A stretch of DNA of 51,250 bases, taken from contig JAUIHQ010000002.1 of assembly GCA_030432155.1 (NCBI GenBank), forward strand, positions 1-51,250, given 5' to 3'. Position numbers and translations under genes: made by a program. A model generated the notes under the pieces. It did not search any database. It was not told the DNA's origin and was given only the letters and a program-made list of their open reading frames with translations. This document shows, in pieces, positions 34,674 to 51,250 of the stretch. Source of the stretch: a bacterium. Lineage in GTDB: Bacteria > Verrucomicrobiota > Kiritimatiellia > CAIVKH01. Numbering within the stretch: the stretch's first letter is position 1; each line of letters opens with the position of its first letter.

Positions 34674-37469
34674 ATGCTTGTTTCTCGTTCATACAGACGG
34701 ACAGTTGTGCTGCTCCTCTGGGCGGCCGTTCTCGGCCTCAGGCCGGTTTCGGCTCAGGAAGGCATGGGGCCGGATGAAGTGTACCAGCTCGGGCTGACCC
34801 ACTTTACGTCCGGCAAATTTGCCGATGCCATACCGAACTTCGAGTATCTCATCGACATCTTCGGTAATGAACCTTCTCTGCAGGACGTGATCGAAGCCTC
34901 CTATTACGGACTCGGCTGCAGCCAGTACAACATCGGTCAATACACCGAGTCGATCGCGACCTTCCGTGACTACATCAAGAAGTTTCCATCCGCGAAGTTG
35001 CTCGATGAGGCGATGTTCCGGATTGCATCGGCTCACCAGGCTGTCGAGGCCTACGGTGATGCAGTCGACGCCTACCGCGAGCTGCTCGAGAAACAGCCGG
35101 ATTCCCTGTTCGCTGAAGATGCCGCGTTTCAGCTCGCTCTCTGCTACATGGCCGATGAGAATGCTTCCGCCGCCGCGAAGGCCTTCGCCTTTTTCGTCGA
35201 GACGTTTCCCCGATCCGACCTCAAGCCCCAGGCTTACGTGTTCATGGCCCGGTCCCAGCTTGATAACGGCGACTACAAAACCGCTCTCGATACACTGGTC
35301 AAGGTCGGAGAGTACGCCAACCGCTTCGAGCATGTCGTTCATGCAAACTTCATCGCCATGGAGATCGGCGATCTCGCGTTTGAGGATACCGAGTACCGCC
35401 TTGCCCTGAAGGCCTTCCGCCGCGTCCGTACCATGAATTCGCTGATTCGGCTTCAGGAGCGGCAGATCGACCGGACGGAACAGCAGCTTGCCTTTCTTTC
35501 CCGCCAGCGGGTGCGCCCCTCCGAGGTTGCTGAGCATTTCCGCAAGGAGCGGCGGCTGAGGATGTCGCTTTCCACGCTCAAGGACGCGCTTGAACAATTG
35601 AAGGAAACCCCCGACTACGATGCCGGGGTGTTCCACCGGATCGGACGTTGTTTCTACAGCATCGAACGCCTGTGGGAAGCGCGCACGGCCTATCGCCGTG
35701 TGATCGAGGAAGCAGACGATCCGGTGCTTCAGGAAGCGGCCGGGTTCGACCTGATCCTGACCCTGAGCCGGTTGCGCCGGTTTGATGAACTGATTGCCGC
35801 GGCCGATCAGTACCTCGACCGGTTCGGAGACGATCCTGAGCTGATTGAAAAGGGCCGGGTGCCTGCGGTGGCATTCATGCGGGCGGAGTCGTTCCTCAAT
35901 CGCGAAATGTTCGAGGCGTGCGAGACCGAAATGGCCAATCTGATGGAGGTGTATCCCGATCATCCCCGCATGCCGAGGATCCGGTTCTACCATGCGCTTT
36001 CGATGGCGATGCAGGAGAAGTTCAGTGAGGCGATTCCCGCGTTTGAGGAGTGGCTCAAGGATTATCCCGACCACCACGTGGCGTCCGAAGTGTCCTACTG
36101 GCTCCCGGTTTCGATGTTTTATGACAGCCGGTATGAACAGGCCATTCCTTTGCTCGACGCCTATGTGAAAGCCTACCCGATGTCGGTCTACACCCCGGAA
36201 GCGGCGTATCGTTCGGCCTTGTGCAAGTATGCGCTGGAGCGATACGGCGAGGCGGCGGAGGAATTGGATGCATGGCTGATCAACCATCCCGATCACCTGT
36301 TCAAATGGGAGGCCCGGGTGACGCTCGGTGATGCCCTGGCCGCGGAAGGTGAGCTGGAGCGGGCGGAGGAAGCCTACCGCTCGGTCACCGCGGAGGCGGG
36401 GCCGTTGCATTACCTGGCCATCAACCAGCTCAACAAGGTGTACAAGGCGCTGGATAGCGAAGAGGCGTATGTTTCGATGGCCAAGGTGCACATCGATTAC
36501 ATGCAGGCAAACCCGGAATCACCGAACATGGTGGAATCGGCCTTCCACGCGGGGTGGGCGCTCCGGCAGCTCGACCGGTCGGACGAAGCCCGCAGGCTGT
36601 ACTGGCAGACAATCAAGAAGTTCGGCGATCAACGGGACTGGGAAGGATTCCAGAAGCTGTTCGGTGATCTGCCCCTGTTGTACCGCGACGAGCCGGACGG
36701 CCGGTTGTATGCCGACTTTGTCGATGCGATGGAAGAGGCTCGCGAGGAAGGACACCGGGTGCTGCTTGCCCGCCTGGTGAAAGCCGAACTCGACAATCGC
36801 GGACGGGATGAAGCGGAGATCGCCGAGGAAATGCTGCGCCGGTTCCGCATCCAGGAATTCGGTCCTGAACTGCTGGCCTTTCTCGGAAACGCCCTGGTGA
36901 AAAGCGGCGATCCGGCGCAGGGGATGACCTTTCTGGAGTTGCTGCTGGAACAGCATCCGAATTCCATGTTTGCCGATGTCGCCTACGCCCGGAAAGCCGA
37001 AGCCCTGCTGGCGTCGGGCAACAACGAAGAGGCCCTGGCCTACGCGGATATTGCGGTTGCCCGTGCGACCGGGCCGGAACTGATGATGGAAGCGGTGTTT
37101 GTCCAGGGCCGTGCCCTGCAGGCGCTGGGGCGCAACGAGGAGGCGCTGGAGGCATTCCGCAATGTCCTGGCCAGCCGCGCCACCCCCCAGGCGCTGAAGC
37201 CGGAGGCGATGCTGGCCGCCGCGGCCTGTCATGAAGCGATGGATGAAACCGCCAAGGCCATCCCCTATTATCAACGCATTTACGTCATGTACCGCGCCTA
37301 TTCCGACGCCGTGGCGGAAGCCTACATGCGAAGCGCCCGGGCCTTCATCACGCTGCGCGACCGGGCATCCGCGATCAACACCTACCGGGAAATGCTGAAC
37401 ACGGAATCTCTGCAGGGCCGCCCCGAGCTCGAGGCAGCCCGGAAGAAACTTGCGGAGCTGGAGTCATGA
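34674..37469 (+). CDS. Large periplasmic TPR-repeat protein (931 aa), first gene of the ExbBD-VWA operon.
   Basis: Signal MLVSRSYRRTVVLLLWAAVLGLRPVSAQE, then many YbgF-like TPR units (e.g. GKFADAIPNFEYLI, GQYTESIATFRDYIKKFP). Confidence 0.85.
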   Translation: MLVSRSYRRTVVLLLWAAVLGLRPVSAQEGMGPDEVYQLGLTHFTSGKFADAIPNFEYLIDIFGNEPSLQDVIEASYYGLGCSQYNIGQYTESIATFRDYIKKFPSAKLLDEAMFRIASAHQAVEAYGDAVDAYRELLEKQPDSLFAEDAAFQLALCYMADENASAAAKAFAFFVETFPRSDLKPQAYVFMARSQLDNGDYKTALDTLVKVGEYANRFEHVVHANFIAMEIGDLAFEDTEYRLALKAFRRVRTMNSLIRLQERQIDRTEQQLAFLSRQRVRPSEVAEHFRKERRLRMSLSTLKDALEQLKETPDYDAGVFHRIGRCFYSIERLWEARTAYRRVIEEADDPVLQEAAGFDLILTLSRLRRFDELIAAADQYLDRFGDDPELIEKGRVPAVAFMRAESFLNREMFEACETEMANLMEVYPDHPRMPRIRFYHALSMAMQEKFSEAIPAFEEWLKDYPDHHVASEVSYWLPVSMFYDSRYEQAIPLLDAYVKAYPMSVYTPEAAYRSALCKYALERYGEAAEELDAWLINHPDHLFKWEARVTLGDALAAEGELERAEEAYRSVTAEAGPLHYLAINQLNKVYKALDSEEAYVSMAKVHIDYMQANPESPNMVESAFHAGWALRQLDRSDEARRLYWQTIKKFGDQRDWEGFQKLFGDLPLLYRDEPDGRLYADFVDAMEEAREEGHRVLLARLVKAELDNRGRDEAEIAEEMLRRFRIQEFGPELLAFLGNALVKSGDPAQGMTFLELLLEQHPNSMFADVAYARKAEALLASGNNEEALAYADIAVARATGPELMMEAVFVQGRALQALGRNEEALEAFRNVLASRATPQALKPEAMLAAAACHEAMDETAKAIPYYQRIYVMYRAYSDAVAEAYMRSARAFITLRDRASAINTYREMLNTESLQGRPELEAARKKLAELES

Positions 37470-38374
37470 AGCGGGGTGTCGTCATCCTGATGCTGGCGGC
37501 GCTGCTGGCGCCGGTGTGGACGCGAACGGCTGCGGCCCAGGGAAGCCGTGAGCGGGGACTCGGACCGGTCACCCTCCTGACGCCGCGCGGTGAACTGGAC
37601 GTCCGACTGATCCGGCGCGAGCGCGATCTCGTGTGGGTGGACCGTGAAACCCGTTCCGGCACGTTCATCGAAACCGGGGTGCCGGTGAGCGACATCCAGG
37701 CCCTTCGCTACGAGGAACCGCGCCTGTTCAGCCTCGCCGAAGCCGCACGCACACCCTCGCAGATGCGTACGGTCATCGAGGCATTGGATAAGATGATTGT
37801 CCAGTTCTCCCCGTACCTTGACCTGCCGAACATCCCCTCCATCCGCGCGCTGGAGATCAAGGCGTCGCTACATGAAAGCCTCGGTGAATGGGACGAAGCG
37901 ATTGCCGCGTACCGGGAGCTGCTCGACAAGGATTACCGGCTGGAGGATCGCGACACCATCCAGTTGCGGACCGGCCTGGCCGGGGTCCGGGCGGGCCGGG
38001 CGGAGGAGGCGCTGGCCATGCTGGAAACCGCGGAGATTCCGGAGGACGATCTCGTGTTGATGTCGGACGTGCGGATGGCCCGGGCCCGGGCTCATACCGC
38101 CGCCGGCAAACCGGTGGAGGCGGTCAATGACCTGATGCACCTGGTGGTGTTTTATCCGTTTGTCCAGACCAACGAGGCCCGCGCCCTGTCCGCCGTCGTT
38201 CCCAATTACATCGAGCTGGGTGACTGGAGCGCGGTGACCCGAACCCTCGAGGCATTGAACGACCAATATCCCGATTCGCCCCATACCGCCTCGGCGGAGA
38301 TGGCGGTGGAACAGCATCGATCCGCACTGGAAGAAGAACAAGCACGGGCGTTGCCCGACATGCCCGAAGAATGA
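37466..38374 (+). CDS. Periplasmic TPR-like protein (302 aa).
   Basis: ATGA overlap with the upstream TPR gene. Signal MKRGVVILMLAALLAPVWTRTAAAQ. TPR-like GEWDEAIAAYRELLDKDY. Confidence 0.75.
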   Translation: MKRGVVILMLAALLAPVWTRTAAAQGSRERGLGPVTLLTPRGELDVRLIRRERDLVWVDRETRSGTFIETGVPVSDIQALRYEEPRLFSLAEAARTPSQMRTVIEALDKMIVQFSPYLDLPNIPSIRALEIKASLHESLGEWDEAIAAYRELLDKDYRLEDRDTIQLRTGLAGVRAGRAEEALAMLETAEIPEDDLVLMSDVRMARARAHTAAGKPVEAVNDLMHLVVFYPFVQTNEARALSAVVPNYIELGDWSAVTRTLEALNDQYPDSPHTASAEMAVEQHRSALEEEQARALPDMPEE

Positions 38375-38389
38375 CATGAGGACACCATC

Positions 38390-39169
38390 ATGAAACGAAC
38401 CCTGATGACATGCATACTGGCCGCCGGCATCGGCATACTCGGGGGCCTGACCCTGAATGCCTATGCCCAGGAGGCCGAAGCCGCCGCGGCCCCGCAGAAG
38501 ACAACCCTGTTTGACCTGATCGCCGCCGGCGGTTGGGCGATGTGGCCGCTTGGCGCGTTGTCCTTTGCGATGATCGCCATGGCCACGATCAACTATCAAA
38601 AGGTCAGCGAGAAGAAATTGATTCCGCAGGCCGCGCTGGGCCAGATCAAGGCCGCCGCCGACCAGCAGAATGCGCGACAGGTCTATTCCATCGCGACCAA
38701 TGTCGACAGTCTCTTCACCAATGCCCTCGCCGCGGGATTGCGGAAGTTCAATCTCGAGGATCCGGCGGAGAGCAAACACAGCGTTGAGGATGCCATCAGC
38801 GAAGCGGTGTCGCGTGAGGAATCCCAGATCGGGTTCTGGATCAACTTTCTCTCGCTGATTGCGGCGGTGTCTCCGATGGTGGGACTGCTCGGTACGGTCA
38901 GCGGCATGATCGGCGCCTTCCAGAAAATCGGCGCCGGGGGCATGGGCAAACCGGAGTTGCTGGCCGGGGATATCGGCCAGGCGCTGATCACCACCGCCAC
39001 CGGCCTGATTATCGCCATCCCCGCGATGTTCTTCTTCTTCCTGTTCCGCAATTCGCTGAATCGCCTGATTCAGAAAGCCGAAGAGGAATTTTCCTACGTG
39101 CTGGATGACCTCACTGGCACCGGCATGGGTCTGATGGATGCCGAAGACGTGGAAGAGGTTGAAGGGTAA
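38390..39169 (+). CDS. exbB: MotA/TolQ/ExbB proton-channel protein.
   Basis: Signal-like N-terminus, then GLLGTVSGMIGAFQKI...IGQALITTATGLIIAIPAMFFF, typical of ExbB/TolQ. Confidence 0.9.
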   Translation: MKRTLMTCILAAGIGILGGLTLNAYAQEAEAAAAPQKTTLFDLIAAGGWAMWPLGALSFAMIAMATINYQKVSEKKLIPQAALGQIKAAADQQNARQVYSIATNVDSLFTNALAAGLRKFNLEDPAESKHSVEDAISEAVSREESQIGFWINFLSLIAAVSPMVGLLGTVSGMIGAFQKIGAGGMGKPELLAGDIGQALITTATGLIIAIPAMFFFFLFRNSLNRLIQKAEEEFSYVLDDLTGTGMGLMDAEDVEEVEG

Positions 39170-39205: not shown

Positions 39206-39667
39206 ATGAAGCTGAAGCACCGCAACAATCCGGATCTCGACATCGACATGACGCCGATGATCGACTGCGTCTTCCTGTTGCTGATCTTCTTCATGTGCGT
39301 GGCGTCGATGTCCAAGGTGGATCTGACCCCGGAATTGGAGCTCCCGGTGGCGCCCAAGGCGTCCATCCCCGAGGATCTGCGGGCCCGCGGCGTGATCAAC
39401 ATCCTGCCCATCGGGGCCGAGACCAGCGCACAGGAAATTGTGACCGAGGATTCGCCGTTCATGGTGTCCGGACGGCTGACCGACGACAAGGGCTTGAGCC
39501 GGGCCATTTCTGAAAAGCTCGCGCAGGAACCGGATTTGCGGGTGTATATGCGGATCGACCGCAACGCGGATTTCGGACTGGTGCGCCGCGGGATCAAGGC
39601 CTGCGCCGAGGCCGGGGTGTACGACATCATTTTCGCATCCTACCAGAGCTCGGGAGGCGGAGGCTAA
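39206..39667 (+). CDS. exbD: ExbD/TolR family protein (paralog 1).
   Basis: DIDMTPMIDCVFLLLIFFM with the conserved TM Asp, and a periplasmic ExbD fold. Confidence 0.9.
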   Translation: MKLKHRNNPDLDIDMTPMIDCVFLLLIFFMCVASMSKVDLTPELELPVAPKASIPEDLRARGVINILPIGAETSAQEIVTEDSPFMVSGRLTDDKGLSRAISEKLAQEPDLRVYMRIDRNADFGLVRRGIKACAEAGVYDIIFASYQSSGGGG

Positions 39668-39669
39668 CC

Positions 39670-40110
39670 ATGAAGATTCGCCGCGCAACCGAGATTCCGC
39701 TGAAGATCGACATGACGCCGATGATCGATGCGGTGTTCCTGCTCCTGATCTTTTTCATGGTCACCACCACCCTCCACCGGCAGGAAGCGGATATCAGCTT
39801 TGCCTTGCCCGGGGTGGCCCAGCAGGACGAACCGGTGGAAATTCCCGACGAGCAGATCATCGAGATTTATGGCGACGGCGTGGTGATGCTGAACGGGCTT
39901 CAGTATGATCCTCCCGGCGTACCGGACATGCCGGAGCTGGTTGAAACCCTCACCCGCTTCAAGGCGACCGCCGATGCAAACAAGGTCGAAGCGATGATCA
40001 CCATCGCGCCCGATGCCGACGTGAAGCATCAGCGGGTGGTCGATGTGCTGAATGCCTGCGCGGCGGCGAAGATTGCCAATGTAACCTTTTCCGTGGACGA
40101 GGAGAGCTGA
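39670..40110 (+). CDS. exbD: ExbD/TolR family protein (paralog 2).
   Basis: KIDMTPMIDAVFLLLIFFM with the conserved TM Asp; 2-nt gap to paralog 1. Confidence 0.9.
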   Translation: MKIRRATEIPLKIDMTPMIDAVFLLLIFFMVTTTLHRQEADISFALPGVAQQDEPVEIPDEQIIEIYGDGVVMLNGLQYDPPGVPDMPELVETLTRFKATADANKVEAMITIAPDADVKHQRVVDVLNACAAAKIANVTFSVDEES

Positions 40111-40112
40111 CA

Positions 40113-41144
40113 ATGCTCAGGCAACTGTTCTCCATCTGGAACCGGCCGGATCACGGCGATCGAAAATCGCCGCTCACCGCGGTGATCGTCAGCATCGTGT
40201 TTCACATTCTCCTGCTGTTCGGAGCCGGGTACCTGACGGTGATGGTGCTGCAAAGCCGGGAAAAAGTGATGTTCGAGGCCAAGAAGCCTCCGTCGATTCC
40301 CGCCCGCAAGCTCGAACACAGCATCCGGGTCAAGCAGATGCAGCAGCAGGTGCGCAAACCCCAGATCCTTCAGCGTCTGGTCTCCCAGGCTCCCAGTGCC
40401 GTTGCGTTGCCTGAGCTCCCGAAGATGGATGCGCCGGATATCCGCAACATGAGGGACACCCCGATCCTCAACAACAGCCAGAGCATGCTCGGTCAGCTCG
40501 GTCGGGACGGCGGCGGCCTCGGCCGCGGCATGACCGGGGGCGGCGGGTATTCTGATGCGAAGTTCTTTGGCCAGAATGTCCGCACCCGCGCGGTGTGCAT
40601 CCTGTTCGACTGCACCGGCAGCATGTATTCCAAGGGCGTGGTTACGGACGTCAAGCGTGAGGCGTCACGCATGCTTGAGGAATTGAATCCCGCCACCAAG
40701 TTCAACCTCATTGCCTTCGTGGACGGCGCCGAAGGCGTGACCCCAAGCCTCGTGTTCGCCATTCAGGAGAACAAGGAGAAGGCCATCGCCTGGCTGGATA
40801 CCATCCAGGAAAACCGACAGGGCAACCGCAGCGGCTATTCCGGCAGTACCCCCGACCAGGCGATTCGTATGGCGGTGGATATCGGCGCGGACACGATCTT
40901 TCTGCTGACCGACGATTTTCCGAACCTGTCAAAAGTAGTGAACGGCAACCGGGAGAGGATTGATGACCATGCCGATCAGCTCGAGGATTTCATCCGCGGG
41001 ATCGAAACCCAGTACGGACGTTCGGTAAAGATCAACCCCATCCTCTACAAGCCCAACCAGGGCCGATCCGGCGATGCATCCCGGGACTATTGGAAAAAAA
41101 TCGCCCGCATCACCGGCGGCAAGATGCAGGTCATCGAAGACTGA
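40113..41144 (+). CDS. TonB-position protein: TonB-like SxxxH signal anchor, Pro/Gln-rich linker, and a C-terminal VWA (MIDAS) domain.
   Basis: Anchor VIVSIVFHILLLFGAGYL (compare E. coli TonB LLSVCIHGAVVAGLLY). VWA: AVCILFDCTGSM (DxTxS), GSTPDQAI, IFLLTDD. No TonB C-terminal-like sequence recognisable. Confidence 0.75.
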   Translation: MLRQLFSIWNRPDHGDRKSPLTAVIVSIVFHILLLFGAGYLTVMVLQSREKVMFEAKKPPSIPARKLEHSIRVKQMQQQVRKPQILQRLVSQAPSAVALPELPKMDAPDIRNMRDTPILNNSQSMLGQLGRDGGGLGRGMTGGGGYSDAKFFGQNVRTRAVCILFDCTGSMYSKGVVTDVKREASRMLEELNPATKFNLIAFVDGAEGVTPSLVFAIQENKEKAIAWLDTIQENRQGNRSGYSGSTPDQAIRMAVDIGADTIFLLTDDFPNLSKVVNGNRERIDDHADQLEDFIRGIETQYGRSVKINPILYKPNQGRSGDASRDYWKKIARITGGKMQVIED

Positions 41145-41274: not shown

Positions 41275-44200
41275 CTACTCCGCTTCCCGCCACCGGATCC
41301 GGTAGAAGCGGGAGGTGGATGAATCGGTGTTGGTTTCGACGTACACCATGGATGACCCATCGCCGGTCACACTCATGAATCCGGTCGGCTCCCACGATTC
41401 ATTCGTGCCCAGGCCGGAGGCGGCCATCACGTCGTATACACTGTTGGACAGTCCGGGCCATTCGAGGTGAAACGTACGGTCGTTGGTGTTGACCGAGGAT
41501 CTGGCCTCTCGCCCGAACCAGTCCGCGGGGTTCAGGGGATTGTGACCGGCGGCAAGCTCCTCTCCGTCCGTCTGACCATCGCCGTCGCTGTCCGGTATTC
41601 GAGCTCCCGTTTCCCCGGCATCGGCAATCCCGTTTGCATTGAGATCTTCGGCCAGGTCGGGAATCCCGTCGCCATCGGTATCGAAGGTATCGAGGCGTAG
41701 CTGAAAATATTCCAAGGACTCAAGGTCCCCATCTCCGTTGCCCAACGGAACCTGGTATGCGCCGTTCAAGCCTCCCCCGTCGGCGGTGGCATAGGAGGCC
41801 ACGCTCAGGTACAGGTTCGACGGAATGCGTCCGAAAACCTGCACAAGATCGATCGCGCCTTCCAGATATCCGCCGTTGTTGAACGGGGTGGCCGCGGGAT
41901 GGCTGAGGTCCATGGCGTTGTTAATGAACCAGCCCTCGAAATCACTGTCGTTTTCGTCGGCCAGAAAATGCAGCCTCCCGAACACCCGGCCCGATTTGGC
42001 CCACGGCGCCGACAGGTCGGGATCCGGGTCGTCGGTCACGAAGATGAAGTGGTCGTTGCCTTCTCCCGCATCCTCGGTGGCGACATAAAGAAGCTTTCCG
42101 TTGAAGTCGGCATACAGGTGCAGGACATTCGTGGCGCGAACCGTCGCCGCTTCGGCGTCCGACAGGATGCCGTCGAGCACATAGGTTTTGAGCGGGACTT
42201 CCTGCTGGTTTCCGCCGGAGGTTTCGAACACCACCGCCCCGGTGGCGGGATAGAAGCGAAGGCACTCATTGCTGTCGATGTTGATGTCGAGGTCCTGCGA
42301 GGGCGGGACCTGGTGGGTCGGCAGGATGGACCCGCCGTCGGCGCTGCCGTAAATCCCCACCGCCATCCAGATCGATTCCGGAACCGTGCCGTATTGTTCC
42401 TCGAGATTGATCACCCCTTCGAGCACACCGCCGTTGGGTCCGGTCTTGGCGTTGGCCGATGCCCGGGTGCGGTACCACGAAACAAAGTCATTGTCGTTTT
42501 CGTCGGCGAGGAACGGGCCGTCCAGCGCGATCGTCCCGTTTTTGTTCCACAGCTCCACCTCGACGCCGGCCACGGCCTGCTCGTCATCGAGAAAGATAAA
42601 GTGGTCGTTGCCCTCGCCGGCATCGACGGTGGCGACATACAGAGCCTTGTTCGTGGCGTCGTAGGCTGCATAAAGAGAAATGCCGTTGTTGTGCGCGATC
42701 TGGGGGACTCCTTCGTCAAGCACACCGTCGAGCACGAAGGACCCGAGCGGGTGGAGTCCGCCCGTCCCGGTGCCGGTATCAAAGAACGATTCAAAAGCCG
42801 CGCCGAGCTCCACGGCGTCGGCCGAGGTCGCGGTTGCGCCGATCACGATCCGGCAGCGGGTGTTCTGGGGCAGTAGCGCGTCAGGGTTGAAAACCATGCG
42901 CGTATTCTCATTGAACCAGGAGAACACCCCCGCCGTTTCAGGTTCCATGGAAAACGCGGCCTCGACCGAGCCGGTCTCCATGGACCGGTCGAACTCGATT
43001 ACGATGGACGAAGCCCGGTCAACGCCGGTGGTGTCATGACGGGGGCTGATCGAGATAACGGACGGTGCAAGGGCGATGAGTCGGTCTGACGGGATGTAGA
43101 TGCGGGATTCATACCCGCCGAGGGTCAACGCCACCAGGCCCGGTCCGCCCCCGCTTCCCACCGTCAGGGTGTCGTTGGTGTTGAAGATGTTGACCAGCAC
43201 GGTTCCGTTGGAATGGATCACCGCCGGACCGGATCCGTTATAGATCGCTTCCCGGGAGCCCGAGGCGGTGTTCAGGGCGACGAGAACGCCGTTGGTGTCG
43301 AGGATGCGCTCATACACGTACAGGCCGCTCCCGGCAAAGTCCTGCCACCGTTCCTGGAAGACCCCGCGGCGTAGCTCCGGATACGCCTCGCGCAACAGGT
43401 TCAGGGTGCGGACATGACGGTACAGGGGATGGGTCATATCGAAGTTATCGCCGAGGGACGGGCCGTACTCGAACTCTCCGTCGAACATGTCCTCCCGGTC
43501 ATAGGGATCATTCCCGCCGTCGAACCCCTGCTCCGTTCCGTAGTAGAGGCACGGCACCTGGAGGTGGGTGTAGAGAAACGTCAGGGCGGGATAGAGTCGG
43601 GTTTGGTTGCCGTTCAGCTTGTCCGCGGCAAGCGCCCGCGACATATCGTGATTGTCGAGAAACATGATAAGCTGGTGACGGGCCTCGGGGTCGTAGTCGC
43701 TCAGCCAGCCGTGACGATCGGATATCTGTGAAGTGTTCTGACCGCGGATGAACACATTCTCCATCGTGTTGAGCATGGGAAAATACAAGGCGGACGGAAA
43801 CCGGTTGGTCCCGGTGAAGGCGCCGACTTCGCTATCGAGCCCGCGCCACGCTTCGGCATAGCTGAGAAAGTTGGTTTTCCCGAGGGAGGAGGCATGGTCC
43901 TCGATGGCGGGCAGAAAATACTCCCAGAAATCCATCTCGATGTGACGGGCGGTGTCGACGCGGAATCCGTCGCAGTCCGTGGCCTCGATGAGGCCCTTGT
44001 AGATCCGCACCAGGTCGTCGCGTACCTGTTGATCCTCGGTGCGGATGCCGTCCAGGCCGGAGAAGTCGCCGAGGATCGACTGTGTCGCATCATCCCAGTT
44101 CTGGACATTCCCGTAGTTGTGAAGCCGGGACAGATCATCGAAGGGCGGGGCATGACGGCGGTTGCTGTTGCGCCAGCGCAGGTTGTACCCGTTGATGTTG

Positions 44201-44742
44201 AACGAGGGGAAACCGAAGTCGGTGGAGTCGGCAAGGTCCCCGAGATGGTTCTGGACCACATCGATGATCACATAGATCCCCCGGGCGTGGGCGGCATCGA
44301 TGAAATTCCGGAGATCCTCGAGCGTGCCCCAATGAGGATCGATCATGTTGAAATCGGTGGCGGCGTACCCGTGAAAACTCCCGCGTACATTCTTCACCAC
44401 CGGGCTGATCCATACCGCCTTCGCGCCGAGCATCTGCAGGTAATCGAGCTTCTGCTCCAGCCCTTCAAAATCCCCGCCGTGGACCGATACCGTGCCGTAG
44501 GGATTGGTGTCGGCATCCGGGTTGTCGTCGTTGTTCGCCGGGTCCCCGTCATAAAACCGGTCCGTCATCACCTGGTAAATGTTGATGTCCCGCCAATCGG
44601 TGGGCGACGGGGTGAAGGCGAACCCCGGGGTATCGTTGGTGCGGGATGGAAGGGTCGACCAGGTTTGGGCGAACCCGGCGCCTGCGATCGCCGAAAAACT
44701 GACCGCAACGCAAAGCGCCCGGCGCTGGATGCCTGAATACAT
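41275..44742 (-). CDS. Secreted multidomain GH13 alpha-amylase-family glycoside hydrolase (1155 aa).
   Basis: Signal MYSGIQRRALCVAVSFSAIAGAGFAQ. GH13 regions DVVQNH, GFRVDTARH, YAEAW, FLDNHD. A tandem ~185-aa domain pair carries GEGNDHFIF. Thrombospondin-type-3-like DTDGDGIPD/DSDGDGQTD repeats. Confidence 0.9.
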   Translation of the reverse strand: MYSGIQRRALCVAVSFSAIAGAGFAQTWSTLPSRTNDTPGFAFTPSPTDWRDINIYQVMTDRFYDGDPANNDDNPDADTNPYGTVSVHGGDFEGLEQKLDYLQMLGAKAVWISPVVKNVRGSFHGYAATDFNMIDPHWGTLEDLRNFIDAAHARGIYVIIDVVQNHLGDLADSTDFGFPSFNINGYNLRWRNSNRRHAPPFDDLSRLHNYGNVQNWDDATQSILGDFSGLDGIRTEDQQVRDDLVRIYKGLIEATDCDGFRVDTARHIEMDFWEYFLPAIEDHASSLGKTNFLSYAEAWRGLDSEVGAFTGTNRFPSALYFPMLNTMENVFIRGQNTSQISDRHGWLSDYDPEARHQLIMFLDNHDMSRALAADKLNGNQTRLYPALTFLYTHLQVPCLYYGTEQGFDGGNDPYDREDMFDGEFEYGPSLGDNFDMTHPLYRHVRTLNLLREAYPELRRGVFQERWQDFAGSGLYVYERILDTNGVLVALNTASGSREAIYNGSGPAVIHSNGTVLVNIFNTNDTLTVGSGGGPGLVALTLGGYESRIYIPSDRLIALAPSVISISPRHDTTGVDRASSIVIEFDRSMETGSVEAAFSMEPETAGVFSWFNENTRMVFNPDALLPQNTRCRIVIGATATSADAVELGAAFESFFDTGTGTGGLHPLGSFVLDGVLDEGVPQIAHNNGISLYAAYDATNKALYVATVDAGEGNDHFIFLDDEQAVAGVEVELWNKNGTIALDGPFLADENDNDFVSWYRTRASANAKTGPNGGVLEGVINLEEQYGTVPESIWMAVGIYGSADGGSILPTHQVPPSQDLDINIDSNECLRFYPATGAVVFETSGGNQQEVPLKTYVLDGILSDAEAATVRATNVLHLYADFNGKLLYVATEDAGEGNDHFIFVTDDPDPDLSAPWAKSGRVFGRLHFLADENDSDFEGWFINNAMDLSHPAATPFNNGGYLEGAIDLVQVFGRIPSNLYLSVASYATADGGGLNGAYQVPLGNGDGDLESLEYFQLRLDTFDTDGDGIPDLAEDLNANGIADAGETGARIPDSDGDGQTDGEELAAGHNPLNPADWFGREARSSVNTNDRTFHLEWPGLSNSVYDVMAASGLGTNESWEPTGFMSVTGDGSSMVYVETNTDSSTSRFYRIRWREAE

Positions 44743-46129: not shown

Positions 46130-47269
46130 ATGATTATGAATCAAATTCTATCGGTTACCCGAGCCTTGTCCGACCTGCCGTTATTGGTGCTGGTATTTCT
46201 TATCTCTGTTACCACAGACGTTTCCATTGCGGATGAGGTGGACGTTTCATCAAGTCAACTCTATGACACCAACAAATTCACCGGATTGATGGCCAATCAT
46301 GCGGAAGACATCGCAGAACTCGAACAGACATTCGTTGATCATCAATATTCCTATCTGCCCATTGCTCCACCATTCAGTGATTTTGTTCTGGATCAACCTG
46401 CCAATGCTCCCGTGATACCGTTCAGCGTCGAAGGGTTTCCCTCATCATTTAATGAGGGCTTGATTGGCTATTACGAGAACAGCGTCGTTGTCTATCCGGT
46501 AACCATTATGGAGGATGCCTCCACTCGGTATACGGTGTTTTTGAATGAAGACGGACAGGCCATCTATTCCATTGCCCCTGTTTCTGGATATGACCCTTTC
46601 GCCTACCTGAAATATCGGTTTCCCTCCCTGTATACAGGGACAACACACTGGTTAACGGTTCAGGAGTACGAGGACGTCTATGACCCCTCCAGAATCCGCA
46701 TGAAGGCGACACTTATTCCCGATGATTATCTTGAGTTTTACTTGTATGCCGAGCAACAGGTTCAGGCATTTCTACCGTCAATTGGATTTGGAGGAGGCGG
46801 AATGGCCATGATGTCAGGAGGCGGTGGTTCCGACAGCAACATCGTCTTTACCAGCATTCATCTGGCGACCAACGGGCTGGCCATGTGCGTGGCCTATCCA
46901 ACGAATTTCACGAACAGATTGGATATCTTTTCCTGCAACTACATCGAAAAGGAAGCCTGGGAGGTTGCAGCAGGTCAACTTTCTACGACGGGAACGAATG
47001 TCATTACATGGGTGGAAACAAATTCATGGCTGAACGTTCCTCCATTCTATCGCAATTACGCCGCCGCAAATGCGGATATTGATACGGATGGTGATGGCCT
47101 CTCCGACCCCCGTGAAAATATGGTCCATCTGTCCGACCCGACCAATGTTGAAACGGATGGCGACGGCATGAACGATTATGACGAAGTCCAGCAGGGATTT
47201 AATCCTGCCGTTTCAAACCTACCATCAAGAATCACAATTCATTTTCCCGTGAATGGACGTGTTTTGTAA
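46130..47269 (+). CDS. Secreted hypothetical protein with C-terminal thrombospondin-type-3-like Ca-binding repeats; lower-GC island.
   Basis: Signal/TM LPLLVLVFLISVTTDVSIA. Gly-rich linker GFGGGGMAMMSGGGGSD. DIDTDGDGLSDP and ETDGDGMNDYDE. The TAA stop overlaps the ATG of the next gene (TAATG). Confidence 0.65.
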   Translation: MIMNQILSVTRALSDLPLLVLVFLISVTTDVSIADEVDVSSSQLYDTNKFTGLMANHAEDIAELEQTFVDHQYSYLPIAPPFSDFVLDQPANAPVIPFSVEGFPSSFNEGLIGYYENSVVVYPVTIMEDASTRYTVFLNEDGQAIYSIAPVSGYDPFAYLKYRFPSLYTGTTHWLTVQEYEDVYDPSRIRMKATLIPDDYLEFYLYAEQQVQAFLPSIGFGGGGMAMMSGGGGSDSNIVFTSIHLATNGLAMCVAYPTNFTNRLDIFSCNYIEKEAWEVAAGQLSTTGTNVITWVETNSWLNVPPFYRNYAAANADIDTDGDGLSDPRENMVHLSDPTNVETDGDGMNDYDEVQQGFNPAVSNLPSRITIHFPVNGRVL

Positions 47270-50200
47270 TGAGTAACCCAGCATGCAAAGATAATCTTAA
47301 GCAATCCAGGCTGATTCTAGTCGCGGTTGCCTCTATACTATTGTTCTCGGACGCGACCATTTACGCAAATGTCGTTGATACACTGGTCGTGCCGATCAAT
47401 GACAGCCAGCCCGTATCACAGGACGAGACCTGTAGTAGCGAAATTCTCGTAAAAACAATGAACGTCAAACCCGTGTTACCGCAAGGTGCAACAATTACCT
47501 CCTGCGTATTAAATGTAGATTTCATCGATGATGCATTCAAAACCGCCGGAGGGGCGATTGACGGAGGTTTCGATAACTGCGAACCGAGCAGTGGATATAC
47601 AGGCATTGACATGCTTCCATATATCGATACCGCCGTGGGCGAATTCGACATCGAATTATGGGACAAGACCGATCAAACCCCAAGCGGACAAAACGAGGTC
47701 AGCATTCAGGGGAGCGTAACATACATGTACACACTCGACCCGATTGTTCCGCCAATGGATGATACAAACGCGCTACTTGAAACCATTGTTTTTGACGACT
47801 GTAAAAAAGGAGACTCTCCTCTCAAGAAGCTTGGGTGCGGAGCTTGCGGAGACGATGGCAACCCTCAAGCGTATGTAATTGTTGCTAATTTCAACGTATT
47901 AATCATGGACACACCCATCTGGCATGAAACGGAAGTCGGCCCCCCACTGGAATTGAAAATGATTTTCAGTAATTACGCCGAGACAAATTCTGCGAAAACC
48001 TTCGGCCCCAAATGGGACCATAATTGGAACTGTTACGTCAGAATGATCGGCCCCGGCACGAATTCGGTGCGACTGCCATCGGGAAGCATCGTCTCATTTA
48101 CCTCTACGGGGGGAAGTCCGTGGTCTCCACCAAGCACTCTGACAGGCGAATTGATCTTCACCAACAGCGTGTTTCAATACATCAAGCCGGATGGTCAGGT
48201 GCTTCAATATGCGGTATCATTGGGAGATACCAACGTATATCTTCTTGACCGAATATGGGATGCTTGGTCAAACACGGTTGAAGTCAGTTATACGAATGAC
48301 CGTCCATTTCAAGTAACGCAAATCAACCCCGACACGGGAAGATACCTTGAGTTTTCATATACAGGCACGAATGCCCATGCCGATACTGTAAACACAGAAT
48401 CCAACGCTCTCAGGACGGCAACTTTTTCATACGATTCAGCAGGATTTCTGACCAACGTCATAGACATGGGGGAATACGGCTATGTCTACACTTATACCAA
48501 TGGCTTTATGGAGGGCGTCTACAAGGAATCCGTATCAGGCACCAGACGAATGGGATTCTCGTATAGCTCAACTCCCGACACGTGGGACGCTACGAACTCG
48601 CACATTCTGACAACCACGGATGCCGAAGATCGAACAAGAAAATTCACCTGGAAGTTCGGGCTGGTCACAGAAGACACGGAATATCTGTCGCAATCCAACA
48701 GGGAGTACTACGTCATTGACTTAAAAACAAACAAAGGAGCCGTTGTCATTCAACATGGAAACGTCAACGGTGCGTCAAGGTATTATTCTTTTCTCTCCAC
48801 AGAACACATACATGTCTACGAAGACAGAGACGGGGCTGAATGGGATTACACCCGCAACGACAATCACCAGATTACTTCCATCACGGACCCGCTGAATAAC
48901 GTATGGAGCAACGTCTATGACACCAACGGGATCGACCTTCTTTACGTTTCGCCCCCCGAAGGAGAACCACAAGCCTATTGGACCTATGTATCAGGCAAAC
49001 ATGCTGTTGAGACGGAAACCAACGCCTTAGGCAAGGTAACATTGTACCAGTACAATGAACTTGGTCTTGTTACGAACTGGCATGATGGCCGAACAACGAG
49101 TTCGCTTTTTTACGACTCGGAAGGTCGTCTTCTTTCATGGCACAGGAATGGAATCCTGATGGAGACCAATCAGTATGACGCCTTCGGTCGGCTGATCTGG
49201 CAACAGAACTCGGCGGGGCTGATCATGACCAACGCATATGACGATCTGAACAGGCCATTATCTCAGACCTATAACAACAACGGTGAAACATCGACACAAT
49301 CAGTGCAGTATGATTGCTGTTTCATCGACCAAACCGTAGATCGGAAAGGACGGATATCTTACTACACCTATAATGACCTTGGCTGGATGCTGGAAGAGAC
49401 CAACCCGAAAGGGCTGACGAATTACTACGGGTACGGATACCACGGCCAGCCCGAATCCATTTCCAACGTTCTGGAACACGAAACCAGAGAATATACGCCT
49501 GAAGGATGGATTAAGAGACGCGAATTGCCTGAACGCTCCTTTGATGGAACTCATGCGGAGAATTTCTTTTATGACAATGAAGGGCTTCTTACCAAGCAAC
49601 AGGGTCTTGCGGGTGAATTTTACAAGTACGAGTATGATGACCTTGGTCAATTGACGGCAGTCTATGTTCCTGACGGAAGCACCCTCGATTTCGGGACCGA
49701 AGAGTATGTCCGCTATGCCACGAACCGCTACGATCCCAGAGGTCGAGTCGTCTGGTCTACGGACATTCGTGGCCTCGAAACAACCAATACCTACAATGAC
49801 CTCGGCCTGATGACGGGACGCAATCATCCCGACTCAACCACAGAAGCGTGGACTTACAATCCCTGGGGGCAGATTACCAGTTACAAAGACAGGGCGGATC
49901 AGATTGTCAGCAACCTCTATGACAGCGTTGGAAGGCTGATTGAACAGATAGATGCAAGGGGCTTCAGCACTCACTTCGGTTATTCCGACGCTGATTTCGT
50001 TACGTCTGTCAGCAATGAGGTACTGGAGATTGCATGGACGTTTGATTATGACGATGAAGGTCGCATCACCACTATCAATAATCCTGATCAAACGCAGGAA
50101 ACCCGTGCCTATGACACCGTGGGTTCGGTTACTCAATTTGTCCGTGGAGGCATCACGGTTGTCTATGAATATGATGACCTTGATAACCTTACGGCAGTCC

Positions 50201-51250
50201 TTGTTGAAAACACGCAGGATGTTGTCGGGGGAGGCGGTGGCGGAGGCGGACCTCCGACTTCCACCAATGAAACCGAATGGCTACTGGTTGTCAGCAATCG
50301 GTATGATGTATTGGGTAGAAAGATCTACTCGGAAACATCGGATGGACTTACGTTTACAAACACTTTCGACAACTGGGGTGAACTAAATACCCGCTTCTGG
50401 CCCGAAGGATTGAGTGATTCTTTTGAATACGGAGACAGAGGATTAACCAATTGGACAGACAGGCTTGGCATCGAGAACAAACTGGCTCTTGATTCTCTTG
50501 GAAGAGTGATTGGCATTACCGATGGAGAAAGCCGAACCATCCAATTTGCTTACCTGACCAATGGCATTGACCAACTGATTACGCTCATTGACGGCAACAG
50601 CAACACGACATCATGGACCTATGATGAGTATGGGAATCCATCCCAGAAAACCTATGCCGACTCTTCGCAGGAAACCTATTCCTTTGATGTCCTGAACCGC
50701 ATCACGAACAAACTGGACGCTTCGGGAATCGACACGGCCTACGGGTATGATGAGGTTGGAAATCTGACCTCCATCCAATACGGAAATGACCCCCTGATTG
50801 AGTTGGGATATGACGCTCTCAACCGTCGCACAAACATGACCGATGGTGTTGGAACGACGACATGGGAATATGACTCAATGGGAAGAATCACTTCGGAGTC
50901 GGGTCCGTTCAATCAGGATGTAACAGCATCCTATGATTCACTTGGAAGAATGACCAACCTCACCCTGAGTGGTTATTCATGGGATTGGGAGTATGATGTT
51001 CTTGGAAGAATCACATACGTGGACGGCCCCGAAGGCTTGTACGGCTTTTCCTATCTGGATAACGGCTTCCGACGGGTTTCGGTATCATGGCCAAACCAGA
51101 TTGGAGCAAGTTACCAGTATGACTCCCTGAAGCATCTCACCAATATTGATTGCGATGAAATGTTCTCCATCGGCTATCAGTATGACGATGGAGGAAGGCG
51201 AACCAATGAAGTATGGGAAAGTGGTCGCTCCATTTCCTACGGCTATGATG
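47269..51250 (+). CDS. RHS/YD-repeat protein (polymorphic-toxin-type shell), 5' partial in window, runs off the right edge. Not in the supplied ORF track.
   Basis: Hand translation from ATG 47269 found no stop through 51250. N-terminus MSNPACKDNLKQSRLILVAVASILLFSDATIYA. More than 20 YD repeats, e.g. YDAFGRLIW, YDSVGRLIEQ, YDDEGRITTI, YDVLGRKIY, YDSMGRITSE, YDVLGRITYV. Confidence 0.85.
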   Translation, partial: MSNPACKDNLKQSRLILVAVASILLFSDATIYANVVDTLVVPINDSQPVSQDETCSSEILVKTMNVKPVLPQGATITSCVLNVDFIDDAFKTAGGAIDGGFDNCEPSSGYTGIDMLPYIDTAVGEFDIELWDKTDQTPSGQNEVSIQGSVTYMYTLDPIVPPMDDTNALLETIVFDDCKKGDSPLKKLGCGACGDDGNPQAYVIVANFNVLIMDTPIWHETEVGPPLELKMIFSNYAETNSAKTFGPKWDHNWNCYVRMIGPGTNSVRLPSGSIVSFTSTGGSPWSPPSTLTGELIFTNSVFQYIKPDGQVLQYAVSLGDTNVYLLDRIWDAWSNTVEVSYTNDRPFQVTQINPDTGRYLEFSYTGTNAHADTVNTESNALRTATFSYDSAGFLTNVIDMGEYGYVYTYTNGFMEGVYKESVSGTRRMGFSYSSTPDTWDATNSHILTTTDAEDRTRKFTWKFGLVTEDTEYLSQSNREYYVIDLKTNKGAVVIQHGNVNGASRYYSFLSTEHIHVYEDRDGAEWDYTRNDNHQITSITDPLNNVWSNVYDTNGIDLLYVSPPEGEPQAYWTYVSGKHAVETETNALGKVTLYQYNELGLVTNWHDGRTTSSLFYDSEGRLLSWHRNGILMETNQYDAFGRLIWQQNSAGLIMTNAYDDLNRPLSQTYNNNGETSTQSVQYDCCFIDQTVDRKGRISYYTYNDLGWMLEETNPKGLTNYYGYGYHGQPESISNVLEHETREYTPEGWIKRRELPERSFDGTHAENFFYDNEGLLTKQQGLAGEFYKYEYDDLGQLTAVYVPDGSTLDFGTEEYVRYATNRYDPRGRVVWSTDIRGLETTNTYNDLGLMTGRNHPDSTTEAWTYNPWGQITSYKDRADQIVSNLYDSVGRLIEQIDARGFSTHFGYSDADFVTSVSNEVLEIAWTFDYDDEGRITTINNPDQTQETRAYDTVGSVTQFVRGGITVVYEYDDLDNLTAVLVENTQDVVGGGGGGGGPPTSTNETEWLLVVSNRYDVLGRKIYSETSDGLTFTNTFDNWGELNTRFWPEGLSDSFEYGDRGLTNWTDRLGIENKLALDSLGRVIGITDGESRTIQFAYLTNGIDQLITLIDGNSNTTSWTYDEYGNPSQKTYADSSQETYSFDVLNRITNKLDASGIDTAYGYDEVGNLTSIQYGNDPLIELGYDALNRRTNMTDGVGTTTWEYDSMGRITSESGPFNQDVTASYDSLGRMTNLTLSGYSWDWEYDVLGRITYVDGPEGLYGFSYLDNGFRRVSVSWPNQIGASYQYDSLKHLTNIDCDEMFSIGYQYDDGGRRTNEVWESGRSISYGYD

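Follow-up and report, generated by a model that had tools for sequence, protein, structure and literature searches.

A 343-aa protein encoded by the last gene of a TPR-TPR-exbB-exbD-exbD-VWA operon is probably the TonB/TolA-like force-transducing arm of a TolQR/ExbBD-type 5:2 proton motor, with a MIDAS-bearing VWA domain as its predicted head. The gene lies in a 51,250-nucleotide stretch of a Kiritimatiellia contig (JAUIHQ010000002.1, positions 1 to 51,250 of the forward strand; assembly GCA_030432155.1) that we refer to throughout as the window. Here we document the architecture, conservation and fold of the protein, its operon, the conservation of that operon across the PVC superphylum, and its homology to a published family, the predicted "vWA force transducers" described by Williams-Jones et al. 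(2025, Mol Biol Evol 42:msaf138; PMC12204202). A first-pass annotation of the window had proposed that an energy-transducing anchor is joined to a VWA domain with a MIDAS, and the exbB-exbD-exbD operon, its synteny, the SHLS register of the anchor and the occurrence of the anchor module with other domains all support that proposal. Because the same conclusion appears in PMC12204202, the idea was right and not new, and since the concept was published in 2025 what the window contributes is one more member, not a discovery. We found no work on vWA force transducers in the literature after PMC12204202.

The protein has a single transmembrane (TM) helix at its N-terminus and, at its C-terminus, a VWA fold whose MIDAS is complete; we refer to the region between them as domain II. 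All of the sequence strings quoted in the first-pass annotation are found in the translation: VIVSIVFHILLLFGAGYL at residues 24-41, KKPPSIPARKLEHSIRVKQMQQQVRKPQ at residues 57-84, FDCTGSM at residues 165-171, GSTPDQ at residues 244-249, and LLTDD at residues 264-268. The protein has more than 200 close homologues, and 2026 cluster representatives match the family at E ≤ 1e-3. Residue conservation was counted over 120 close homologues (alignment A1, the close family) and cross-phylum conservation over a 48-sequence alignment. A scan of species genomes with the broader alignments A2 and A3 missed distant members because no stretch of these alignments is conserved enough, so A1 was used instead, and distant clades were reached through a profile protein search together with contig look-ups. 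In phmmer, residues 243-307 matched human malic enzyme (E=8e-4); this match falls inside the VWA domain and is unsupported by either the profile search or the fold, and we regard it as chance.

Within the anchor, the Ser-x3-His motif singled out by the first-pass annotation is present as Ser27 and His31. The His is found in 120/120 close homologues and the Ser column is 83% Ser (S100/A11/T8), while A38 and T42 are, like His31, invariant in the close-family alignment. The conserved residues S27, H31, A38, and T42 thus stand at i, i+4, i+11, and i+15, which is the SHLS register of TonB and TolA (Ser-X3-His-X6-Leu-X3-Ser; PMC12215075), whose Ser and His contact ExbB/TolQ in cryo-EM structures (PMC12215075). 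S-x3-H occurs in 2, and the full register in none, of 374 non-family TM-like segments from the same loci, as compared to 31/32 family anchors; the motif is more than chance. The annotation had also matched a Gly at His+6 and a Tyr at His+9 to TonB, and here the register stands for the Ser/His pair and the SHLS positions but not for these two residues, whose likeness to TonB is coincidental: neither G37 (G66/A25/S14) nor Y40 (S46/Y26/F17) is conserved. Alignment of the anchor with those of TonB and TolA likewise revealed a shared S-x3-H but nothing else. Scored against a profile of 10 genuine TonB/TolA anchors, the target reaches 5.0 (leave-one-out range of the genuine anchors, -3.5 to 12.1), on a profile that is not discriminating, as 12/371 background segments that lack a His reach the same score. 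When the S/H columns are masked, the target is equalled or beaten by 363/371 background TM segments, leaving no detectable similarity to TonB/TolA beyond the Ser and His. S-x3-H is the whole of the sequence signature of TonB and TolA anchors, and whether the target aligns with them better than random segments do is therefore judged only on the motif, its conservation, and its context.

Just past the membrane lies a candidate motor box, a D-box-like strand in which F54 is invariant in A1 and at least 90% conserved in distant subfamilies, and in which E55 and K57 are near-invariant. This segment is situated 20-26 residues past the His, as is the D-box of TonB (residues 43-54), which shows hydrophobic/hydrophilic alternation with flanking prolines (PMC10907165); in the published Tichowtungia exemplars a 'stator box' falls at residues ~55-60 (PMC12204202). 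The monomer AlphaFold2 model does not predict the segment as a strand. By analogy with TonB, we infer that it may bind ExbD.

Domain II occupies ~100 residues between the TM helix and the VWA domain (residues ~47-150 in the model). Part of it had been described as a K/P/Q-rich linker, but analysis of the homologues shows that this linker is not a loose spacer. With 9 Pro in the ~104 residues from 47 to 150, the region is not proline-rich in the manner of the TonB spacer; it is instead conserved, and partly helical or Gly-rich. Residues 60-103 hold many invariant positions (P60..K66-L-E-H69-x-I-R-V-K-Q-M..Q79-x-R-K-P83-Q-I-L-Q-R-L..P94..V-A-L99-P100-E-L-P103), including three invariant motifs. 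With these motifs and the D-box-like segment, few regions of the protein are as well conserved as the supposed linker. P83, L99, P100, and P103 keep at least 90% conservation across the 48 sequences of the cross-phylum alignment, and a helix is predicted at residues 64-92 with modest pLDDT in the AlphaFold2 model. That these motifs are invariant across phyla indicates that domain II is not a passive spacer. Even the Gly-rich stretch that follows has, despite its disorder, invariant Gly positions (G133-135, 137, 139, 142, and 145).

The assignment of the C-terminal domain to the VWA fold was borne out by structure prediction. Residues 155-343 of the AlphaFold2 model have a pLDDT above 90, and the best Foldseek matches are the VWA domains of ITIH4 (E=1.4e-11), ITIH1, the PilB pilin, alpha2delta, and CLCA1. 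Pfam VWA matches of the target are below cut-off (VWA_4 19.2, VWA_3 18.9, and VWA 15.2 bits vs 27, 27, and 23.8 bits, respectively); some relatives exceed the Pfam VWA cut-off. The MIDAS residues are conserved in orthologues, with D166 and D267 present in 120/120 close homologues and the other positions occupied by Ser or Thr only (168, S104/T16; 170, S115/T5; T246, T115/S5), and in the profile alignment the DxSxS motif falls on the MIDAS loop of ITIH4/ITIH1. Sequence and model together point to a metal-binding VWA head in this protein. Among His-anchored representatives the MIDAS is intact in 72/80. The MIDAS is not discussed in PMC12204202, and in the published exemplars it is degenerate (D-x-N-x-L, with the final Asp missing), so metal-dependent binding cannot be the way in which every family member couples.

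Table 1 Features of the VWA protein and its operon (positions in the window).
Feature	Position	Strand	Basis
931-aa secreted TPR protein, YbgF/CpoB-type and BamD-type repeats	34674..37469	+	TIGR02795 tol_pal_ybgF 169.9 bits over 5 stretches; YfiO/BamD 92.6
Secreted ~300-aa TPR-repeat protein	37466..38374	+	Pfam TPR matches; N-terminus signal-peptide-like
exbB/tolQ-like proton-channel subunit	38390..39169	+	Pfam MotA_ExbB 103 bits
exbD/tolR-like paralogue 1	39206..39667	+	Pfam ExbD 65.5 bits; TM Asp conserved 8/8 loci
exbD/tolR-like paralogue 2	39670..40110	+	Pfam ExbD 79 bits; TM Asp conserved 8/8 loci
CDS, VWA force-transducer-like protein, 343 aa + stop	40113..41144	+	ORF, ATG start, translation
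N-terminal TM anchor, residues ~21-46	40173..40250	+	Model helix 19-48, pLDDT 86-94; SHLS-register residues
Ser27; His31 (plus A38, T42)	40191-40193; 40203-40205	+	SHLS-register positions of anchor
Candidate motor box / D-box-like strand, residues 48-60	40254..40292	+	Family consensus P-K-P-x-V-M-F-E-A-K-K-x-P
Conserved part of domain II, residues 60-103	40290..40421	+	Many invariant columns
Gly-rich disordered spacer, residues 117-147	40461..40553	+	pLDDT <50 for residues 117-144
Periplasmic VWA domain (predicted), residues 150-343	40560..41141	+	pLDDT >90; Foldseek matches to VWA
Predicted MIDAS: D166-x-T168-x-S170; T246; D267	40608-40622; 40848-40850; 40911-40913	+	Conservation, profile alignment

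The three genes immediately upstream of the VWA gene encode the subunits of a proton motor. Only 2 nt separate the stop codon of the second exbD gene from the ATG of the VWA gene, and a Shine-Dalgarno-like sequence (GAGGAGAG) lies within the end of that exbD gene. In comparisons with NCBIfam models, in which the scores of all the motor subunits are far under the equivalog cut-offs, the channel subunit scores 83 bits against TolQ and 51 against ExbB, and the two ExbD paralogues score 51.5 and 37.6 bits against TolR and 23 and 32.6 against ExbD. The channel subunit keeps the pore Thr residues and the TM3 Pro, and both ExbD paralogues retain the proton-binding Asp. The TM1 Ser-x3-Trp pair of E. 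coli ExbB/TolQ (Ser34/Trp38 in ExbB), which contacts the Ser and His of the transducer, is not recognisable here: a Ser is conserved and the Trp is missing, in a TM1 that aligns poorly. Near the operon we found no gene for an outer-membrane partner, TolB, Pal or a TonB-dependent transporter. We considered the acidic C-terminal tail (…LPDMPEE) of the ~300-aa TPR protein as a ligand for the MIDAS; three or more D/E in the last 8 residues occur in just 21/52 cases, and because the tail is not conserved we dropped this idea. PADLOC returned no match for the motor and VWA proteins, and on this null result we rejected the reading as an anti-phage defence system with a MotAB-like motor (e.g. Zorya).

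The arrangement of the operon is conserved well beyond Kiritimatiellia. In all 47 of the 47 species loci whose upstream sequence is long enough, two exbD genes lie directly upstream of the VWA gene, with exbB also falling within the strict search range applied to these loci in 43/47, and 7 further contigs keep the arrangement, reaching Verrucomicrobiae and Methylacidiphilales at ~25% identity. The large TPR gene heads the module in all contexts read, and a gene of 298-362 aa lies between it and exbB in 7/7. The six-gene module is found in Kiritimatiellia, Lentisphaerota, Verrucomicrobiae (in the cultured Phragmitibacter flavus), Methylacidiphilales, and Akkermansiaceae, between unrelated flanks, and looks like a single-copy, core operon in lineages of very different lifestyles. 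A Phycisphaerales match that does not adjoin exbBD (P0361, E=3e-22) was treated as a generic anchored VWA protein and as evidence neither way. The anchor and domain II also occur together with other domains: P0148 and P0162 have kinase or SAM additions at the N-terminus, and the C-terminal region of P0261 has a subthreshold squalene-hopene-cyclase match only and no VWA match. Varied partners of this kind are consistent with domain recombination.

We favour a model in which every physical contact, the direction of the force, and the partner are inferred from these features. ExbB would form a pentameric channel and the two differing ExbD paralogues, both with a proton-binding Asp, a heterodimeric plug within it. 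The TM helix of the VWA protein would dock on the outside of ExbB through Ser27/His31, and the two ExbD proteins would use their periplasmic domains to hold the conserved strand past the membrane (residues ~50-57), much as the D-box of TonB is held. The rest of domain II, some ~90 residues with the flexible Gly-rich stretch among them, would span the periplasm, the VWA metal ion would grip an acidic residue of the partner, and proton flow would then pull that partner. The residues that the model singles out are H31, S27, F54, and the MIDAS triad.

Other explanations can be offered for an anchored VWA protein beside exbBD. BatA and BatB, of the Bacteroides/Leptospira aerotolerance operon, combine an N-terminal anchor with a periplasmic MIDAS VWA domain, and were the target a protein of this type it would serve as a static scaffold in the periplasm, with no mechanical meaning to its place beside exbBD and with a coincidental S-x3-H. 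The BatA-like structure 4jdu is indeed among the Foldseek matches (E=2e-6), Bat operons hold TPR proteins too, the large TPR protein gives a weak match to BatC (32.6 bits vs a cut-off of 175), and the Pfam VWA matches of the target are weak and generic. However, Bat operons contain MoxR ATPase and DUF58 genes, which are absent from this operon and its flanks, lack ExbB/ExbD, and have no requirement for an S-x3-H anchor, whereas in the family described here the exbB-exbD-exbD synteny is universal among the relatives examined, the genes overlap or nearly abut, His31 is invariant and part of a motif that is rare in background TM segments, and the candidate strand past the membrane is conserved. 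A static scaffold is thus highly improbable. We attach even less weight, amounting to a negligible chance, to the target being a member of a second published family, TPH-vWA, in which the VWA protein replaces TolR/ExbD and a trans-pore helix with a proton-binding Asp sits inside the TolQ pentamer. That family shares the layout of a TM-anchored VWA protein beside a tolQ-like gene, also occurs in Verrucomicrobia, and is defined by the absence of tolR/exbD (PMC12204202). The sequence refutes membership, as the TM helix of the target has no Asp and carries S-x3-H instead, and two bona fide Asp-bearing exbD genes are present at the locus.

A further possibility is that the VWA protein is a stator-like tether that fixes the ExbBD motor to an immobile structure of the periplasm or outer membrane, much as the OmpA-like domain of MotB anchors MotAB to peptidoglycan, while the motor works on another target, for instance the TPR proteins. 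Pfam recognises no peptidoglycan-binding domain in the ExbD paralogues, the TPR proteins are the only conserved partners in cis, and the invariant linear motifs of domain II resemble typical ligands of TPR domains, to which they might bind. Nevertheless, in the characterised 5:2 motors the protein held on the outside of the pentamer through its Ser and His is the transducer (TonB, TolA) and not an anchor (PMC12215075), and a long disordered Gly-rich spacer fits an arm that reaches and pulls better than it fits a rigid tether. We consider a tether unlikely and retain the force-transducing arm as our preferred reading.

As to what such an arm would do, a Tol-Pal-like role in envelope maintenance or division, as opposed to nutrient import, is our tentative suggestion, made at somewhat less than even confidence. 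It draws on the motor scores that are nearer to TolQ/TolR, the CpoB/YbgF-type TPR proteins, and the single-copy-looking core operon found across lifestyles. More speculatively, the MIDAS subfamily might be the general replacement for TolA/TonB in the PVC superphylum, linking the flow of protons to a partner in the outer membrane or periplasm by a metal-ion 'catch' on an acidic residue, and might also supply the energy with which Verrucomicrobiota take up large glycans independently of TonB; at present we regard this as doubtful. Kiritimatiellia and similar PVC bacteria are reported to be without recognisable TonB and TolA, and we know of no bacterial motor-driven transducer that couples through a metal-ion catch. 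If the model is correct, PVC bacteria drive an outer-envelope process by a familiar motor with a wholly different "hand", and the known repertoire of proton-driven trans-envelope machines is wider. We note as a lead only that mul1A (Amuc_0544), a gene of Akkermansia muciniphila for mucin utilisation that reportedly abolishes mucin use when disrupted, is two to four genes from genes annotated as ExbD/TolR (Amuc_0546) and MotA/TolQ/ExbB (Amuc_0548), with hypothetical genes between them (locus-tag annotations). The gene order of Amuc_0544-0548 differs from that of the canonical module in Akkermansiaceae MAGs.

The best structural matches, which are eukaryotic and Gram-positive adhesion domains (ITIH1/ITIH4, integrin I-like domains, and the PilB minor pilin), share an aligned DxSxS...T...D site but are secreted or surface adhesins, none of them tethered to a proton-driven motor. 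With E. coli TonB the target shares an N-in, single-pass Ser-x3-His anchor, a short candidate strand at the D-box position, co-encoded exbB/exbD, and a periplasm-spanning middle region of similar length. It differs from TonB in having no TonB_C domain (PF03544; no Pfam or NCBIfam match) and a VWA fold in its place, in a middle region that is strongly conserved rather than a proline-rich rigid linker, and in its predicted grip, which would be MIDAS metal coordination instead of beta-strand augmentation of a TonB box. The likeness to TolA and the Tol-Pal system extends to the SHLS anchor (TolA, IIISAVLHVILFAALIW; target, VIVSIVFHILLLFGAGYL), to motor subunits that score best against TolQ/TolR, to YbgF-type TPR proteins in the operon, and to a part-helical domain II. 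However, TolA domain III is missing, the window contains neither tolB nor pal, the TPR protein has five YbgF-like units in 931 aa compared to the 263 aa of CpoB, and the single TolR has two counterparts here.

The closest counterparts are the published exemplars, transducers 1 and 2 of Tichowtungia aerotolerans (Kiritimatiellota), which are encoded in the same type of operon and whose TM helix is placed at the TonB/TolA site in AF3 models (PMC12204202). Compared with the exemplar sequences, which were taken from the text of the supplement to PMC12204202 and have a few residues missing there, the target gives BLASTP E-values of 3.5e-14 and 4.3e-14 at ~24% identity and a family HMM score of 68 bits. 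Both have an SHLS-type Ser/His TM helix, a domain II of ~100 residues, and a C-terminal VWA domain, and both come from a PVC operon with TPR, tolQ-like, and two different tolR-like genes; the target also has a candidate for the motor/stator box that the exemplars carry just past the membrane. The exemplars are 474-476 aa long, with a large VWA insert that the 343-aa target does not have, are encoded by two transducer genes at one locus (supplement) rather than one, and have a degenerate MIDAS where that of the target is complete. As judged from sequence, the target belongs to a shorter subfamily of the published vWA force-transducer family, for which no deletion phenotype is known (PMC12204202). 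What our analysis adds to the published description is that the MIDAS is mostly intact in the family, that domain II carries conserved motifs, that both ExbDs have the Asp, and that the likeness of the anchor to TonB comes down to its Ser and His.

The protein encoded by the last gene of a tightly packed same-strand block (see table) has a single strongly hydrophobic segment (residues ~21–46; …LTAVIVSIVFHILLLFGAGYLTVMVL…), in which Ser27 and His31 lie four residues apart, and its C-terminal half carries the metal-site residues D166-C-T168-G-S170, T246, and D267. The strings quoted by the first-pass annotation, which had read this protein as a TonB-type anchor joined to a MIDAS-containing VWA domain, are all present in the ORF. 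An AlphaFold2 model built from 60 homologues contains a long N-terminal helix (residues 19–48), a second helix of modest confidence (64–92), a Gly-rich, disordered stretch (117–144), and a very confident α/β domain (~155–343). Foldseek matched this last domain to VWA domains, as the annotation had proposed, including those of ITIH4 (E = 1.4e-11), ITIH1, the PilB minor pilin, calcium-channel alpha2delta, CLCA1, and the BatA-like structure 4jdu; matches to Pfam VWA models were subthreshold only. In family profile searches the DxSxS loop aligns onto the MIDAS loop of ITIH4 and ITIH1. The MIDAS residues are essentially invariant among 120 close homologues, and four or five of the five positions are kept in 72/80 His-anchored representatives; the conservation of the predicted metal site is thus borne out as well. 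A marginal phmmer match of residues 243–307 (window 40839–41033) to human mitochondrial NAD-malic enzyme (E = 8e-4) found no support in the profile search or the fold, and we judged it to be a chance match.

Features of the transducer locus and its neighbours
Feature	Coordinates	Strand	Remarks
Secreted 931-aa TPR protein	34674–37469	+	five YbgF/CpoB-type units, BamD-type repeats
Secreted 302-aa TPR protein	37466–38374	+	TPR
MotA/TolQ/ExbB protein	38390–39169	+	
ExbD/TolR protein 1 (ExbD1)	39206–39667	+	
ExbD/TolR protein 2 (ExbD2)	39670–40110	+	differs from ExbD1
VWA protein (target ORF)	40113–41144	+	ATG start, 343 codons
Three invariant linear motifs of domain II	40290–40421	+	target residues 60–103
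Downstream 1155-aa secreted alpha-amylase-family protein	41275–44742	−	Big_5, bacterial TSP3 repeats
Downstream 379-aa TSP3-repeat protein	46130–47269	+	
Downstream >1327-aa RHS-repeat protein	47269–51250	+	extends past window end

Close relatives (at least 50% identical, ~345 aa) come from metagenome-assembled genomes of Kiritimatiellia, ‘Verrucomicrobia’, and Lentisphaerae, and every named entry among them is a ‘hypothetical protein’. When 1.8 billion cluster representatives were searched with a profile, 2026 proteins matched at E ≤ 1e-3, many of them in alignments that begin in the anchor and run through the whole VWA domain. At ~25% identity, a distant clade is found in Verrucomicrobiae (the cultured Phragmitibacter flavus and Luteolibacter among them), Methylacidiphilales, and Akkermansiaceae.

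Among the 120 close homologues His31 is invariant, as are Ala38 and Thr42, and the counts at position 27 are 100 Ser, 11 Ala, and 8 Thr. The spacing of these four residues (i, i+4, i+11, i+15) is exactly that of the Ser-X3-His-X6-Leu-X3-Ser (SHLS) motif. In cryo-EM structures from 2025 TonB and TolA touch ExbB and TolQ by way of this motif, and in both proteins the Ser and His are the only part of it with good conservation and structural engagement (PMC12215075). Across ~150 distant cluster representatives the His is found in 104/129 anchors, and ~85 of these also have Ser at His-4; position His+7 is usually Ala, Leu, or Phe, and His+11 is Val, Ile, or Thr. As a control we took every TM-like segment outside the family from the same set of ~65 loci (n = 374): S-x3-H occurs in two of these and the full register in none, compared with 31 of 32 family anchors. 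The Ser/His spacing noted by the first-pass annotation thus holds, but the Gly at His+6 and Tyr at His+9 that it had matched to E. coli TonB are not conserved among close homologues. The anchor shares the Ser/His pair with TonB and TolA, but a profile made from ten genuine anchors of these two families, with the Ser and His columns masked, has no similarity to it; it is therefore in the Ser/His pair alone that the anchor resembles TonB.

In one subgroup (cluster representatives P0158, P0190, P0193, P0215, P0219, P0224, and P0251) Gln replaces the anchor His, usually with Ala at −4, and most MIDAS positions are still present. Only the non-protonatable Asn is known to replace His20 of TonB, and this subgroup may inform on the role of the anchor His.

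Residues 57–84, which had been taken for a TonB-like K/P/Q-rich spacer, are instead among the most conserved stretches of the protein. The family consensus directly after the membrane is P-K-P-x-V-M-F-E-A-K-K-x-P, with F54 invariant; this short, hydrophobic, proline-flanked segment lies about as far from the His as does the D-box of E. coli TonB (QPISVTMVTPAD), which is held as a β-strand between two ExbD periplasmic domains (PMC10907165). Domain II, the region between anchor and VWA domain, contains three further motifs (K-L-E-H-x-I-R-V-K-Q-M, R-K-P-Q-I-L-Q-R-L, and V-A-L-P-E-L-P), whose core positions P83, L99, P100, and P103 are at least 90% conserved in a cross-phylum alignment. TPR domains commonly bind extended linear motifs of this kind, and the two TPR proteins are the sole conserved cis partners of the target. 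By this analogy the domain-II motifs may be docking sites for the TPR proteins of the operon.

Anchor and domain II also occur in other settings: fused to an N-terminal, cytoplasmic Ser/Thr kinase (cluster representative P0148), joined to a SAM domain (P0162), combined with several VWA domains in proteins of ~1400 aa (P0210 and P0245), or with a C-terminal region that matches squalene-hopene cyclase only below threshold and VWA models not at all (P0261). These varied combinations fit modular recombination.

The target ATG follows the exbD2 stop codon by 2 nt, with a GAGGAGAG motif 7–14 nt upstream. The six-gene module recurs, between unrelated flanks, in the seven contigs that we inspected in full. 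Of 56 species-representative loci, 47 extend 2 kb or more upstream; two exbD genes lie directly upstream in all 47, and exbB too, within a strict distance limit, in 43. The ExbB homologue retains the pore threonines and the TM3 proline, and the membrane Asp is present in both ExbD paralogues at 8/8 loci compared. In Kiritimatiellia the first periplasmic strand of ExbD1 is followed by an insertion, and ExbD2 has an insertion of ~10 residues (…PPGVPDMPEL…ATADANK…) in all eight loci. Judged from these sequences, the consistent differences between the paralogues suggest an obligate heterodimer.

A secreted protein of ~300–360 aa, here the 302-aa TPR protein, is always encoded after the large TPR gene and before exbB in loci L001–L065; section 8 of the 2025 paper on vWA force transducers (Williams-Jones et al.; PMC12204202) names only ‘a TPR gene’. 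The Verrucomicrobiae copies of this protein have no Pfam match, and many copies carry the motif E..[FY]Q[VI] close to a C-terminus that is of low complexity and often acidic. The large TPR protein includes a staphylococcal-nuclease-like (SNase, OB-fold) domain in some relatives (L003 671–3046; L004 4723–7185), a domain with no match in the 931-aa protein of the window. In Phragmitibacter flavus a type II secretion/type IV pilus-like cluster (pseudopilins, T2SSF, T2SSE; L061 10069–15533) directly follows the module on the opposite strand, an arrangement not seen in the other contexts inspected.

We propose that ExbB would form a pentamer and ExbD1/ExbD2 a heterodimeric plug, that the target TM helix would dock onto ExbB through S27/H31, and that the ExbD pair would grip the putative post-membrane strand. 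The Gly-rich remainder would span the periplasm, and the MIDAS metal would hold an acidic residue of a partner, on which proton flow would then exert force. The TonB D-box strand runs parallel to one ExbD protomer and antiparallel to the other (PMC10907165), and an asymmetric ExbD1/ExbD2 pair would suit such an asymmetric hold.

As to what the module does, we weakly favour a Tol-like function in the envelope or in division, because the motor subunits score closer to TolQ/TolR, the operon encodes YbgF/CpoB-type TPR proteins, and bacteria of widely differing lifestyles have the module as a core operon; nutrient import and gliding-type functions are possible alternatives. The rest of the window encodes no TonB-dependent transporter, TolB, Pal, TonB_C, MoxR, DUF58, or other Ton- or Tol-related protein, and PADLOC found no defence system. 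Akkermansia muciniphila could tie motor-coupled transducers of Verrucomicrobiota to a phenotype, since in this species disruption of mul1A (Amuc_0544) abolishes mucin use and lowers gut colonisation ~100-fold (PMC12570417). According to the literature, mul1A lies near an ExbD/TolR gene (Amuc_0546) and a MotA/TolQ/ExbB gene (Amuc_0548), with hypothetical genes between; the order of Amuc_0543–0548 differs from that of the canonical module in Akkermansiaceae MAGs. Were one of these hypothetical genes to encode an S-x3-H-anchored transducer, it would give the family its first phenotype.

Tichowtungia aerotolerans (Kiritimatiellota) is reported to lack TolA/TonB homologues, and its motor genes adjoin genes for proteins in which a TM helix with the SHLS motif and its conserved His is followed by a motor box, by a domain II of ~100 residues, and by a C-terminal vWA domain; AF3 places the helix at the TonB/TolA site, and no deletion phenotype is known for vWA transducers (PMC12204202). 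Our literature search found no experimental follow-up on them. The two Tichowtungia sequences, printed in the supplement (PMC12204202), match the target at E = 4e-14 (23–25% identity over residues 23–316) and score 68 bits against the target-family HMM, which places the target in the published family. Together with the SHLS register, the MIDAS conservation, the VWA fold, and the exbB-exbD-exbD operon, this supports the chimera of TonB/TolA-type anchor and MIDAS VWA domain that the first-pass annotation had described. Since the concept of a motor-coupled vWA transducer was already published in 2025, the interest of the locus is modest: it extends a known but still uncharacterised kind by one member of a separate subfamily, and what it adds is a conserved MIDAS, which the 2025 paper nowhere mentions (PMC12204202), conserved domain-II motifs, two ExbD paralogues that both appear competent from their sequences, and the limits of the similarity to the TonB anchor. 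The ‘stator box’ of the Tichowtungia proteins (residues ~55–60) is the putative counterpart of the post-membrane segment of the target, whereas their length is ~475 aa rather than 343 aa, and their D-x-N-x-L loop, without the last Asp, contrasts with the intact MIDAS of the target.
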